A stretch of DNA of 64,000 bases. Source: Patescibacteria group bacterium (GTDB lineage: Bacteria; Patescibacteriota; Microgenomatia; UBA1400; PJMF01). The translations under genes were made by a program, and so were the position numbers. Location: assembly GCA_039934415.1 (NCBI GenBank), contig JBDTME010000001.1, forward strand, positions 49,496 through 113,495, written 5' to 3'. Positions 38,371-53,784 of this stretch are shown here, in pieces. The notes under the pieces were generated by a model. The model made no database searches. It was not told where the DNA came from and saw nothing but the letters and a program-made list of their open reading frames with translations. The stretch's first letter is position 1, and every line of letters begins with the position of its first letter.

Positions 38371-38446
38371 TGGCGGACTCGGCCGGATTCGAACCGGTGA
38401 TCTCCTCTGTGACAGAGAGGCGTGATAACCACTACACTACGAGTCC
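38371..38446 (-). tRNA. tRNA-Asp (anticodon GUC), CCA encoded
   Basis: Hand-folded. Acceptor GGACTCG/CGAGTCC. Anticodon stem CCTCT/AGAGG with loop CTGTCAC. T-loop TTCGAAT. Ends GCCA. Confidence 0.9.
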
Positions 38447-49397: not shown

Positions 49398-52262
49398 TTA
49401 ACTGATTTTTTCGATCTTGATTTCGCTACCTTTTTGCAGGATTGTGGCGTGAGTCGCAGCTTTAATCTTATCTTCCCACTCAGATGGCCAATTTGACAAT
49501 GTTAAATTGATGGAATCATTAGTACTGAAACCAGATTTTTTGCGGAGCTGTTGAATGCTTCTGATTATTTCGCGAGCTTCTCCTTCTGCTTTTAGTTCAG
49601 CCGTGAGTTGTGTATCTACAGTAACTGTCAGCGCTTCTCCACTCTGCCAGTTCAGTTTCTTAATGTTGACTTCCTCTAATAAGACTTTAATTACCTCTGC
49701 TCCAAGTTCCTTTGATGAGCTGTTGATAGTGACAGTTGCTAAAGGTTGACGCACTTTGATTGAATGCTCCGCACGTTGAGCGTGAATTTTTTCGCTCAGT
49801 TCTTGTGCAGTTTTCATATCTTGCTCTAACTGTTCATCAATGTCTGAGGATTGAGCAACTGGCCAATCAGTATGGTGAATGCTTTTGGTTTGATCAACCA
49901 AATTGTGGTAAATCACCTCGCTGAAAAAAGGAGTAAGTGGAGCAAATAATTGCGCCAAAGTATACAGAGCCATACCGAAAGTCTGCATTTCTTCACTATT
50001 CTGGTCAGCAGTGCGTAGTCGATCACGACTTCGACGCAGATACCATGTTGATAACTCATTGACGAAATCCATTAATGTTCGAGATGCTTTAACTAAGTTG
50101 TACTCATCCATCGATTGGGTGACTGATTTGATAGTCGAATGAACACGACTCATCAGCCAGCGATCCATGACATGGGTAGGTTTTGGGTGGCGAGTTGGGT
50201 CAAACACTTTCGTGACATCGCATTGTTTATAAAATGCGAATATATTCCACCAAATTAGAAATACTTTTTTACGAATATCACCAACTTCTTTTGATGAAAA
50301 ATTGATGTTCTCAGATTTCATTACTGGTGAACTCATCAAGTAGAGACGCAAACTATCTACGCCGAACTCGTTGATGATGACCATTGGATCTGGATAGTTC
50401 TTTTTAGACTTACTCATTTTGGAACCGTCTTCTGCCAAGATGGTGCCAGTCGTTAATACATTCTCAAATGAGTGAGTTCCAAATATCCCCACGGACATAA
50501 CGTGCATGGTATAAAACCAAGCGCGAGTTTGGGCGATATACTCACTGACAAACTGAGCAGGATAATTAGCTTCAAATTCAGCTTTGTGTTCAAAAGGATA
50601 GTGTCTTGCAGCGAAAGGCATTGACCCAGACTCAACCCAACAATCGAATACTTCTTTGATTCGTTTGCCTTTGACTGTCTTGGCATCATCTAACCACACC
50701 TCAACCTCATCAAGAAACTCACGATGGATGTCAGTAAGACCTTCGACAGCTTTGGGATCGACTGCCCACTGTCGGAGTTCTTCAATTGAACCAATCACTC
50801 TATATTGCTTTGATTCCATGCCTTCTTTTGCATTGGCAACCCAAATTGGCATAGGCGTTCCCCAATAGCGAGAACGTGAAATATTCCAATCCGGAGCATT
50901 TTCTAGTCCTTTTCCAAAACGACCATATTTCAAATATTCCGGGAACCAGTTGATCAATTTATTTTTTTCCATTAATTTAGGTTTTAGTTGTTGGACATCG
51001 ATGAACCACGCTGGTACCGCATTGTAAAAAAGTGGTGTTCCGCATCGATAGCAAAATGGATACGAGTGAGTGATTTTGTTTGCATGAAGAAGCAGGTTGC
51101 GTTTCTGCAAGTCTTCAATGATAGGTTGTTCAGCTTTTTTAAAAAATTGTCCAGCAACGAGTGTGACGGAAGGTAAGAACTTCCCTTCATCATCGAGACT
51201 GGGTACACATGGCAAGTTGTTGGCTATGGCCAGTGCGTAGTCATCTTCACCATATATGGCTGCTGTGTGCACGATTCCGGTTCCGTCTTCTAGGCTAACA
51301 AAGTCCGCAGCGAGTACTTCGTAGGCACGTTTCCCTTCAGTTGGCATGTATGAGTGGAGTGGTTGGTAAGTCTTTCCGATTAGCTTGTCACCGGTAACTG
51401 TTTCAATTACAGTGGGTTTTTCAACGTGCAGCAACTTTTCGAGTTTGGGTAATAAGTTTTTTGCAAACCAATAATATTCTTTGGTGTTAGTCTCAGTTAA
51501 ATGTTCAACTTTGACGTACTCAGCGTCTTCTTTTACAGCCAAGGCAACGTTGCCTGGAAGAGTCCAAGGAGTTGTGGTCCAAGCGACAAAATACTCGTTT
51601 TCTGCATCATTCACTTTAAATTTGACATAGACTGAATTATCTTCGACGTCGCCGTAACTGTTATCCATGGCAATTTCGAAATTAGATAATGGAGTAGCAC
51701 AGCGTGGACAATAGAGGACAACTTTCCTGCCTTCATAGACCAGCTTTTTATCGTAGAGTTGCTTAAATCCCCACCAAACCGATTCCATGTACGATTTGTC
51801 CATCGTTTTGTAATTATGTTTAAAGTCGACCCAACGCCCAAGTCGTTCGATGATTTTTTCCCATTCTTTGTCGAGCATCAACACTTCTGTTCTACATGCG
51901 TCGTTAAATTTATCGATTCCTAATGCTTCGATACCTTTTTTGCCACCTTTGATATCTAATTTTTTTTCAATCATGTTTTCGATGGGTAACCCATGACAGT
52001 CCCAACCCCATACTCGCTCTACTTTGTAGCCTTTCATCGTCCAGTACCGTGGAATCACATCCTTACTGGTGGAGCCTAGTAAGTGTCCATAATGGGGTAA
52101 TCCAGTGGCGAAGGGGGGACCATCGTAGAACACATATGATTTTTGACCTTCCCTCATGTCGATTGATTTTTGGAAAGCATTGGTTTCACGCCAGTACATC
52201 AACACTTGTTCTTCAAGTTCAGCTAAATTTGGTGTTTGTTTAAAGTTTGTGACTTCTGGCAT
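49398..52262 (-). CDS. ileS: Isoleucyl-tRNA synthetase, eukaryote-like type 2
   Basis: HIGH region DGPPFATGLPHYGHLLG (type 2 signature, versus PPYANGSIHIGH in type 1). KMSKS = KMSKSKKN. 954 aa. Confidence 0.9.
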   Translation of the reverse strand: MPEVTNFKQTPNLAELEEQVLMYWRETNAFQKSIDMREGQKSYVFYDGPPFATGLPHYGHLLGSTSKDVIPRYWTMKGYKVERVWGWDCHGLPIENMIEKKLDIKGGKKGIEALGIDKFNDACRTEVLMLDKEWEKIIERLGRWVDFKHNYKTMDKSYMESVWWGFKQLYDKKLVYEGRKVVLYCPRCATPLSNFEIAMDNSYGDVEDNSVYVKFKVNDAENEYFVAWTTTPWTLPGNVALAVKEDAEYVKVEHLTETNTKEYYWFAKNLLPKLEKLLHVEKPTVIETVTGDKLIGKTYQPLHSYMPTEGKRAYEVLAADFVSLEDGTGIVHTAAIYGEDDYALAIANNLPCVPSLDDEGKFLPSVTLVAGQFFKKAEQPIIEDLQKRNLLLHANKITHSYPFCYRCGTPLFYNAVPAWFIDVQQLKPKLMEKNKLINWFPEYLKYGRFGKGLENAPDWNISRSRYWGTPMPIWVANAKEGMESKQYRVIGSIEELRQWAVDPKAVEGLTDIHREFLDEVEVWLDDAKTVKGKRIKEVFDCWVESGSMPFAARHYPFEHKAEFEANYPAQFVSEYIAQTRAWFYTMHVMSVGIFGTHSFENVLTTGTILAEDGSKMSKSKKNYPDPMVIINEFGVDSLRLYLMSSPVMKSENINFSSKEVGDIRKKVFLIWWNIFAFYKQCDVTKVFDPTRHPKPTHVMDRWLMSRVHSTIKSVTQSMDEYNLVKASRTLMDFVNELSTWYLRRSRDRLRTADQNSEEMQTFGMALYTLAQLFAPLTPFFSEVIYHNLVDQTKSIHHTDWPVAQSSDIDEQLEQDMKTAQELSEKIHAQRAEHSIKVRQPLATVTINSSSKELGAEVIKVLLEEVNIKKLNWQSGEALTVTVDTQLTAELKAEGEAREIIRSIQQLRKKSGFSTNDSINLTLSNWPSEWEDKIKAATHATILQKGSEIKIEKIS

Positions 52263-52480
52263 AGAGTTTCAGTTCTCATTTTGTTCTTATAATACAAAAA
52301 ACCCTCTTGAACTCACAGAAAATGTGAACTCAAGAGGGTCTTCGGGTCGAAGGCGGTGCCACCTCAATTTGGTCTCTACTGCTATTACGGGCGTACCCGG
52401 CTTGGTCTAATATTCTGAAAATGTACAGAAGTTCTTCAAGCACCTTGCTGAGTGATCATCAGCTCAAACGGTTGTTAATC
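52263..52480 (-). promoter_or_regulatory. T-box riboswitch-like leader of ileS (putative Ile specifier AUC, short Stem I)
   Basis: In ileS sense AAATTGAGGTGGCACCGCC (plus 52352..52370) matches the T-box consensus AAUUAGGGUGGNACCGCG at 15 of 18 positions. Its GAGG can pair with the CCTC of the downstream terminator 5' arm (antiterminator logic). A candidate specifier hairpin GCUGA-UGAUCAC-UCAGC lies at plus 52447..52463. Confidence 0.6.
52295..52338 (-). terminator. Intrinsic terminator/attenuator hairpin of the ileS leader
   Basis: In ileS sense: CCCTCTTGAGTTCACA-TTTTC-TGTGAGTTCAAGAGGG (16 bp including 2 G-U pairs) followed by TTTTTTG. It lies 30 nt upstream of the ileS ATG. Confidence 0.6.
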
Positions 52481-52487
52481 TAAAAAG

Positions 52488-52496
52488 ATTATATCA
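52488..52496 (-). promoter_or_regulatory. Putative extended -10 promoter element (TGATATAAT) for the ileS leader
   Basis: TGnTATAAT in ileS sense, about 25 nt upstream of the proposed specifier hairpin. Confidence 0.35.
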
Positions 52497-52515
52497 CAGT
52501 TCCTGAGCAAGTTAG

Positions 52516-53784
52516 CTACTTTTGTCTCAAAAAGGCTGGGATATCGAATTCGTCTTCGAACTCATTTTCGATTGTATTAGTTGGATCAGTCGGCTGTGAT
52601 TGGGAAGGGTCCTGCTGAGTATGCGGTTGGGGTTGTGTTGGTGATTGATTAAACCCAAAGGATGACATGGCGGGCTGAGGTGGAGTACTAATTACTGGTT
52701 GAACGTAAGAGTTTGGAGAGGTAGCAATGCGTGGTTCAGGTTTATCCTCTACCAATTTCTTTTCAGAGGCACGGGAGTAAGCTCCGAATTGTGGGCGTTT
52801 CATCGTACTATATGGTGTTCTGCCCTCAAATCCAGTGGCGATAACACTAATACGTAGTTCTTGTCCGATGTTTTCATCGATGGTGGCGCCAAAAATGATA
52901 TTGGCATCAGGGTCTGCAGCTTGAGCAATAATCTGTGAAGCATCAGACACTTCACTCATCGACATGTCTGCTCCACCGATAATGTTGTACAGCACACCCT
53001 TTGCTCCATCAATTGAAACTTCTAATAATGGAGAGGAGATTGCCATTCGTGCTGCATTGACAGCTCTATTTTCACCACTTGCTGTTCCAATACCCATCAA
53101 TGCTGAACCTGAATCCGACATAATTGTCTTAACATCTGCGAAGTCAACGTTAATCAATCCAGGAACGGTAATTAGATCTGAAATACCTTTAACACCCTGC
53201 CCTAAAACATTGTCGGCCAGTCGAAAAGCATCTAGCAACGTCATTTTTTTATCAACCACGTCCATTAAACGTTGATTTGGAATGACAATTAAAGTGTCAA
53301 CATGATCTTTTATCATGTCGATGCCCTCTTCGGCACTATTCATTCGACGAATACCTTCAAATAGGAATGGTTTCGTGACAACTGCAACTGTAAGTGCGCC
53401 TGCTTCTTTAGCAAGCTGAGCAATGACTGGAGAGGCGCCGGTACCGGTTCCTCCACCCATTCCTGCCGTAATAAAAATCATGTCAGTGTCAAATAACATT
53501 TCCTGGATCTTCTCGCGAGATTCTTCAGCTGCCTGACGACCAACTTCTGGATCAGCTCCGCTTCCTAAACCTTTAGTGAAGTTGGAACCAATTTGCATTT
53601 TGGTATCAGCTTTGGAGGTGAGTAATGCTTGAGCATCCGTATTGACTGTGATGAACTCAACGCCCTGAATCTTATTTGATTCAATCATTGAATTGACAGC
53701 GTTGCCGCCACCACCACCTACACCAATTACTTTAATTTTAGCGTATGTTGTATTAGTAGGTTTAACAAATGCCATAGCGTTCAA
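52516..53784 (-). CDS. ftsZ: Cell division protein FtsZ
   Basis: Tubulin signature [13 protein letters not shown]. Gln/Pro-rich C-terminal linker. Confidence 0.95.

Follow-up and report, generated by a model that had tools for sequence, protein, structure and literature searches.

The 253-nucleotide (nt) gap between ftsZ and ileS, on the minus strand of a 64-kb stretch of contig JBDTME010000001.1 from a Patescibacteria group bacterium (64,000 nt, hereafter the window), holds a structured leader that, judged by sequence comparison, is very probably a class III (short Stem I) T-box riboswitch controlling the isoleucyl-tRNA synthetase (IleRS) gene ileS via transcription attenuation. Two covariance models recover this leader over its full length, and its full architecture is kept, with covariation, in the ileS leaders of relatives in two phyla, the conservation by which the original prediction, made from the sequence alone, had proposed to be checked.

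The first covariance model (R1) was derived from 17 actinobacterial ileS leaders only, with a hand-written structure comprising Stem I, the lower and upper helices of Stem II, Stem IIA, Stem III and the antiterminator helices A1 and A2. In the window it gave a single match (52466..52332, 46.8 bits, E~1e-13) that covered model positions 1-188 end to end, and among the relatives it identified 34 sites directly upstream of ileS. Recovery of the full-length site by a model built from Actinobacteria alone bears out the resemblance to the ultrashort ileS T-boxes of Actinobacteria that had been proposed earlier. The second model (R2), derived from 14 leaders of the relatives with the window left out, also gave a single match (52475..52331, 103.5 bits, E~3e-24). 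Because two independent models each return one full-length match, the element as a whole is not a product of chance. The T-box sequence itself, AAAUUGAGGUGGCACCGCC at 52370..52352 on the minus strand, is near-consensus, as had been noted from the start; the motif RGGTGGNACCR taken alone is weak evidence, matching in 15 of 100 shuffles. The features of the locus are as follows.

52472..52296, minus strand: whole element, with Stem I, Stem II, Stem IIA/B, the antiterminator with the T-box, and the terminator with its U-run, in that order.
52442..52472, minus strand: Stem I in its short form, without distal platform, from the R2 alignment.
52452..52458, minus strand: specifier loop UGAUCAC; the codon AUC occupies 52456..52454 and the next base, 52453, is the purine A.
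52400..52441, minus strand: Stem II, with lower helix GCUUG/CAAGC (52441..52437 with 52404..52400), S-turn, upper helix and 8-nt loop.
52381..52399, minus strand: Stem IIA/B with the F-box, CGGG-UACG-CCCG-UAAUAGC, near-invariant in both phyla.
52366..52380, minus strand: purine-rich linker AGUAGAGACCAAAUU, 15 nt, between Stem IIA/B and A1, in the usual place of Stem III.
52334..52365, minus strand: antiterminator with the T-box, composed of A1, a 7-nt bulge and A2, aligned by both R1 and R2.
52296..52343, minus strand: intrinsic terminator, from a terminator scan.
52488..52496, minus strand: promoter-like extended -10 box TGATATAAT, read from the sequence, of putative function.
49398..52262, minus strand: ileS, encoding a type-2 (eukaryote-like) IleRS of 954 amino acids, with its ATG at 52262.

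Pairing across the relatives supports this architecture. When 43 leaders were aligned to R2, 94.3% of the cells were paired, compared with 70% in shuffled controls and 23-50% with slid partners, and 22 of the 27 pairs were changed on both sides; the alignments behind these counts, and behind the similar counts obtained with R1, were fitted to the models and are to that extent biased towards the structure, and the slid controls and a plain listing of Stem I sequences agree with them.

Stem I consists of a basal helix of 3 bp (ACC/GGU; 52472..52470 with 52444..52442), a K-turn-like internal loop (GUUUGA/AA) and an upper helix of 5 bp (GCUGA/UCAGC; 52463..52459 with 52451..52447) closed by a 7-nt apical loop. 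The upper helix was 97.7% paired among the 43 leaders, with double changes in 6 of 6 pairs, and its sequence is free to vary while the loop is kept, as in GCUGA/UCAGC, GUCCUG/CGGGAC, GUGUAG/CUACAC and CCUUGG/CCAAGG. The basal helix was 82.5% paired in the R2 alignment of the same leaders, which supports it better than a separate test did (modest support: 16 of 27, where the controls averaged 8.9). The hairpin GCUGA[UGAUCAC]UCAGC at 52463..52447, which had been put forward as a candidate specifier presenting AUC-A, is borne out by the relatives, where the loop AUC-A is conserved within the consensus C-Y-AUC-A, and in both phyla AUC persists in almost every ileS leader. The specifier AUC (Ile) thus agrees with the regulated gene, as a T-box specifier should. 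The loop has 7 nt in the window versus 6 nt typical of the relatives, and the apical specifier loop is quoted as 5-6 nt for the short-Stem-I class. An extra hairpin of ~15-30 nt lies between Stem I and Stem II in L003, L007, L019, L020, L023, L026, L034-L038, L042, L043 and L064 (locus numbers of the relatives), and the Stem I statistics from the R1 alignment are partly contaminated, this hairpin having been aligned as Stem I in some leaders.

The lower helix of Stem II was 95.7% paired in the 43 leaders, with double changes in 5 of 5 pairs, and the upper helix (UUCUG/CAGAA) was 90.9% paired in the R1 alignment. Between them lie the two strands of the S-turn, AAGAAC at 52436..52431 and UAUUAGAC at 52412..52405, with GAAGAA and UAGA invariant or nearly so among the leaders. 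GAAGAAC, UAGA and CGGGUACGCCCGUAAUAGC are all conserved, and the leader therefore carries both the Stem II S-turn and the Stem IIA/B by which the class is recognized. The pairs of Stem IIA are invariant in the R1 and R2 alignments and neither support nor contradict the helix, and for the pseudoknot partner of Stem IIB no consistent covariation was found in the relatives' leaders beyond a GC/GC contact.

The antiterminator comprises A1 (GAGG/CCUC; 52365..52362 with 52337..52334), which was 93% paired, the bulge UGGCACC (52361..52355), which conforms to UGGNACC, and A2 (52354..52338), which has one C·A mismatch in the window and was 94% paired; both helices show double changes in the 43 leaders. 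Downstream, the terminator is formed by a 5' arm at 52339..52324 (extendable to 52343), a 7-nt loop at 52323..52317 and a 3' arm at 52316..52301, and ends in six U at 52301..52296, followed by 33 nt more before the ileS ATG. No other terminator-like hairpin in 20 kb comes near it in strength. Its stem, first described as a perfect 16-bp hairpin with a U-run before the ileS ATG, does have 16 uninterrupted pairs (20 when the U-run is used), of which 14 are Watson-Crick and two are G·U, and is hence not strictly perfect. The 5' arm holds the 3' strands of both A2 and A1, including the CCUC that pairs with GAGG, so that the two folds are mutually exclusive and the leader has the alternative structures of a T-box attenuator; the competition between antiterminator and terminator was thus correctly foreseen. 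Folding calculations, which had been suggested as a check, gave competing structures of -6.3 kcal/mol for the antiterminator and -25.5 kcal/mol for the terminator, with terminator folds ranging from -25 to -35 kcal/mol. According to these computed energies, a weak antiterminator faces a strong terminator, which is the usual T-box arrangement and one in which the ON state would need tRNA.

An extended -10 box, TGATATAAT, precedes Stem I in the window. A consensus promoter scan did not call it and gave no -35 box at proper spacing; in many relatives a TATAAT or TATACT box, often with TG before it, lies ~20-28 nt upstream of Stem I. Its position suggests a transcription start near 52481 and a transcribed leader of ~219 nt, and the length of 253 nt first given for the leader is therefore correct as the intergenic distance, the putative transcript being shorter.

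From these elements we infer the following sequence of events. Transcription would start ~15 nt upstream of Stem I, and Stem I, the S-turn of Stem II and Stem IIA/B, together forming the decoding module, would clamp tRNA-Ile(GAU) at its anticodon stem-loop by means of the AUC in the apical loop. If the tRNA were uncharged, its 3' NCCA could pair with the UGGC of the bulge and stabilise the otherwise weak antiterminator made of A1 (GAGG/CCUC) and A2. The terminator would then not form, and RNA polymerase would read into ileS and probably into rodA.

Beyond the bias of the fitted alignments, several observations weigh against this assignment. The Rfam search of the window returned no T-box at the gathering score; at a relaxed threshold, RF00230, in essence a model of classes I and II, aligned with 52449..52331 at 18.2 bits against a gathering threshold of 93 (E=0.055 in a 401-nt search), with 78 Stem I model positions deleted. 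This low score is shared by the whole short-Stem-I class: RF00230 gave 33.6 bits on the actinobacterial ileS leader L047, 33-37 bits across L047, L052 and L014, no match at E<0.01 on three further actinobacterial ileS leaders, and no match on 16 further ileS loci. Because RF00230 fails on actinobacterial ileS T-boxes too, its low score is not evidence against membership, and the original prediction's proposal to abandon the assignment if RF00230 gave no significant hit was not a valid test. Neither the window nor the ~160 fetched loci yielded a tRNA-Ile gene in ARAGORN, and C52358, the variable base of the bulge, would form a C·A mismatch with the usual A73 of tRNA-Ile. According to reviews, rapid capture of tRNA by transcriptional T-boxes generally depends on the platform of a long Stem I, and the leader differs from the T-boxes studied so far in two parts that bear on the sensing of the tRNA 3' end.

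The first of these is Stem III, which is missing from the window leader: the 15-nt linker at 52380..52366 cannot form a hairpin, and in the R1 alignment the 32 model positions of Stem III are reduced to 4 nt. All 17 aligned actinobacterial leaders have Stem III, and the closest relative, L001 (78% IleRS identity), has a ~68-nt insert with a hairpin exactly where the window lacks it. Stem III has been termed 'indispensable for function', for binding of the tRNA 3' end (PMC7583486), and the motif 5'-RRRxG-Stem III-AA-3' is described as part of the aminoacylation sensor. The second is the basal pair of A2, which in the window is G52354-C52338 and not G·U. All 17 actinobacterial leaders and the RF00230 consensus have G·U at this position, a conserved pair regarded as the primary steric sensor for the aminoacyl group (PMC7583486), whereas the relatives have GC (31), AU (7), UG (3) or UA (1) and G·U in none. 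The original prediction, in listing the oddities of the leader, had overlooked these two, which are more unusual than those that it named. The mode of discrimination between charged and uncharged tRNA may consequently differ from that of studied T-boxes. Among the relatives, L016:2746-2923, L070:2745-2932 and L044:2791-2917 differ in their T-box region, which has an additional U (UUGGUACC), and their basal pair of A2 is U-G or U-A.

Without Stem III and with a G-C pair at the base of A2, the RNA might bind tRNA-Ile with poor or no discrimination between its charged and uncharged forms, and act as a total-tRNA sensor, a leaky constitutive attenuator or a decaying relic. Such a role would be in keeping with the C·A mismatch within A2, with a mismatched UGGC if the tRNA-Ile has A73, and with the report that an antiterminator lacking Stem III shows no appreciable tRNA binding (PMC7583486). 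We nevertheless regard it as unlikely, given that the spacing between Stem IIA and A1 is at most 25 nt in 20 of the 36 relatives' leaders, which were not selected for spacing, and most of these keep strong terminators. The recurrence of the reduced layout, with helices maintained by compensatory changes, argues for selection on a working switch. In addition, UGG and ACC of the bulge are invariant, and the linker of the window retains GAG and AA, the purines that normally flank the missing stem.

A working switch need not act on transcription, and its decoding module is homologous to those of the actinobacterial translational T-boxes, in which the ribosome-binding site is sequestered. For the window this type of control is very unlikely instead of termination: the hairpin runs straight into six U, ends 35 nt upstream of the ATG and contains no Shine-Dalgarno-like sequence. 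Among the relatives, ~29 of 35 leaders have a hairpin (-12 to -35 kcal/mol) with a direct U-run, beginning 5-12 nt short of where the model match ends at its 3' side and therefore containing the 3' strand of A1; the distal sequence of these terminators differs genome by genome. The actinobacterial ileS leaders, in contrast, showed no U-run and have the known Shine-Dalgarno sequestrator instead, and the lineage of the window thus couples the class III decoding module to transcription termination. Evidence for the translational mode within this lineage comes from one sub-clade (L013:2788-3000, L022:2814-3000, L029:2822-3000 and L140:7585-7721, the last on the minus strand), where the T-box is followed by a weak hairpin without a good U-run and where CCCUUU, the 3' strand of A1, is complementary to an AAAGGGG that immediately precedes the start codon. 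This sub-clade may have switched to translational control.

For the window, where attenuation by termination remains our preferred interpretation, the identity of the effector tRNA was considered from the base that follows UGG. This variable base of the T-box is C (52358), an oddity correctly pointed out in the original prediction and a rare one: among 39 ileS leaders of the lineage it is U in 34, C in four (the window, L013, L022 and L023) and A in one, with a further leader, L025, truncated, and it is U in all 26 actinobacterial leaders found. Each C variant has close relatives with U (L001 for the window; L029; L026 and L036), so that U must have given way to C at shallow depth on at least three occasions. 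A73 is the norm in bacterial tRNA-Ile, and the C in UGGC predicts G73; as a sub-reading of the minimal T-box proposed below, UGGC may report a tRNA-Ile bearing G73 in the organism of the window.

The same bulge occurs in two metagenomic leaders with short Stem I, no Stem III and a terminator with U-run, one preceding an apparent SerRS (L084:1831-1948, minus strand, Ga0214471_10067124; MLDIKYIREN...) and the other, with loop UGG-G, preceding an apparent TrpRS (L090:1350-1485, minus strand, Ga0210057_1005667; ...GRLHLGNYLGA...). Both came from a metagenome scan with the Stem-III-less spacing pattern that yielded mostly chance matches, R1 matching 7 of 80 loci. tRNA-Ser and tRNA-Trp normally have G73, which UGGC fits; the acceptor-end rule therefore seems to be kept in the reduced class, and the UGGC of ileS would be a real deviation. 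These leaders also indicate that the reduced design is not confined to ileS. Another reduced T-box (L128:883-1003, minus strand, OBEQ012975759.1; R2 66.8 bits) has UGGU and the loop UUUCCCG. A hairpin and a U-run come next, the product of the first long open reading frame downstream resembles a tRNA-binding-domain protein, and a UUC (Phe) specifier is possible.

A tRNA other than tRNA-Ile that has G73 could also pair with UGGC, and the loop UGAUCAC contains GAU (Asp) while the tRNA-Asp(GUC) of the window, at 38371..38446 on the minus strand, has G73 and an encoded CCA and would pair perfectly with the bulge. We rejected this reading, which is highly improbable: the G before AUC is found only in the window and in L001, the latter with UGGU, and is not conserved in the consensus C-Y-AUC-A; GAU is followed by C and not by a purine; third-position wobble would be needed; and the regulated gene is ileS. 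Judging by their called lengths, the three remaining tRNA genes of the window (Glu, Thr and Gly) seem not to encode CCA, and in Actinomycetaceae (L047:2541-2614; L048-L050 at ~2584-2658) a tRNA-His gene lies ~130-170 nt upstream of the ileS T-box. Lastly, the chance that what separates ftsZ from ileS is no riboswitch but a plain terminator or attenuator beside an accidental T-box-like motif is negligible despite the 15% of shuffles matching the 11-nt motif and the sub-threshold RF00230 score, being excluded by the full-length R1 and R2 matches and by the covarying architecture before ileS in two phyla.

The proposed class III T-box lies between ftsZ (53784..52516; TIGR00065, 440 bits) and ileS, and a rodA/ftsW-like gene follows 14 nt downstream of ileS; the G+C content of the window is 40%. 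The best NCBIfam model for the IleRS was TIGR00392 (859.7 bits), followed by MupB and MupA, both under their own cut-offs, and the similarity to MupA and MupB makes mupirocin insensitivity of the enzyme a reasonable inference. The type-2 motif, PPFATGLPHYGH, is present, as the original prediction had noted, but the type-2 enzyme is not the oddity it was taken for, because the actinobacterial genes with the same T-box class encode homologues of the same type, with 32-41% identity to the window protein. The IleRS of Mycobacterium tuberculosis is likewise eukaryote-like. Association with type-2 IleRS is not strict, however: a Stem-III-less T-box with an AUC specifier and a terminator (L154:2583-2756, plus strand, contig OFRM01000931.1) precedes an IleRS with the type-1-like motif PPTANGKPGIH, and the short-Stem-I ileS T-box is thus not tied to the type-2 enzyme.

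With one genome taken per species, the nearest IleRS relatives (52-78% identity) were metagenome-assembled genomes titled Patescibacteria group, Microgenomates group or Candidatus Woesebacteria, and the next group after these Patescibacteria-type relatives was Actinobacteria. Many assemblies of the same identity range (loci L001-L044) that clearly group with Patescibacteria/Microgenomates by both IleRS and leader carry the title 'uncultured Pseudomonadales bacterium', and single records of relatives are titled Vitreimonas, Limisphaerales or Methylococcaceae; the odd titles among L001-L044 probably reflect wrong taxonomic labels or faulty binning in the public databases. A MurB-like protein of the window (62183..63253, minus strand) has an identical sequence on a 1.3-kb contig from run SRR26386571, and that sample probably holds the organism of the window or a very close relative.

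Our literature search returned no report of a T-box for Patescibacteria, the candidate phyla radiation, Microgenomates, Saccharibacteria or related groups, a provisional result as most subscription papers lay outside the search, and on T-boxes without Stem III it matched only a review remark on Stem-III-less constructs. The TBDB database applied its short-Stem-I model only within Actinobacteria or among matches to the Rfam model, and both the standard Rfam model and such Actinobacteria-restricted searches miss the class in this lineage. We advance with reserve, as a proposition slightly less than evenly balanced, that this Patescibacteria lineage uses a natural minimal T-box of ~145 nt with a terminator, which would act co-transcriptionally without elbow platform, Stem III or G·U sensor. 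If these RNAs really discriminate charging, then neither the need for a platform in transcriptional T-boxes nor the indispensability of Stem III would be general, and a simpler sensing geometry must exist, for example with the Stem IIA/B pseudoknot stacked directly on A1. T-boxes are a model for the sensing of tRNA charging by RNA as well as antibiotic targets, and the current picture of them comes from Firmicutes and Actinobacteria. The leader of the window and its relatives would extend T-boxes to the candidate phyla radiation, where gene regulation is almost unknown, and show which parts evolution can drop while the remainder stays under selection. Structural and kinetic studies would also gain from them a naturally occurring minimal construct, with the window and L001 as a ready comparison of leaders without and with Stem III.

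The closest known systems are the class III ('ultrashort Stem I') ileS T-boxes of Actinobacteria, which Sherwood et al. reportedly described in 2015 from Mycobacterium tuberculosis, M. smegmatis and Nocardia farcinica, and whose structures are said to be the work of Battaglia et al. and of Suddala & Zhang 2019. Like the leader of the window, these regulate a type-2 IleRS gene and have a short Stem I with apical AUC-A, the S-turn (GAAGAAC ... UAGA), the Stem IIA/B F-box and a bulge between A1 and A2. The window differs from them in its host, which is of the Patescibacteria/Microgenomates type, in its intrinsic terminator with U-run in place of a Shine-Dalgarno sequestrator (sequestration being usual for class III and not strictly defining), in the lack of the Stem III that is present in 17 of 17 actinobacterial leaders, in the A2 basal pair (G-C versus G·U in 17 of 17), and in the bulge (UGGC versus UGGU in 26 of 26).

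With the class I transcriptional T-boxes of Firmicutes (Bacillus subtilis tyrS and ileS; RF00230), the leader shares the UGGNACC bulge, the Stem II S-turn, Stem IIA/B, a specifier matching the downstream synthetase and, as predicted from its sequence, a tRNA-dependent competition between antiterminator and terminator. It lacks their long Stem I and distal platform (interdigitated T-loops contacting the tRNA elbow), presents its specifier in an apical rather than an internal loop, has no Stem III, and has G-C where RF00230 has G·U, the score of 18.2 bits standing against a threshold of 93. Compactness and the loss of one domain are also features of the class II glyQS T-box of B. subtilis, the smallest well-studied transcriptional T-box; glyQS, however, has dispensed with Stem II while retaining both Stem III and the platform of a long Stem I, whereas the leader of the window shows the reverse.

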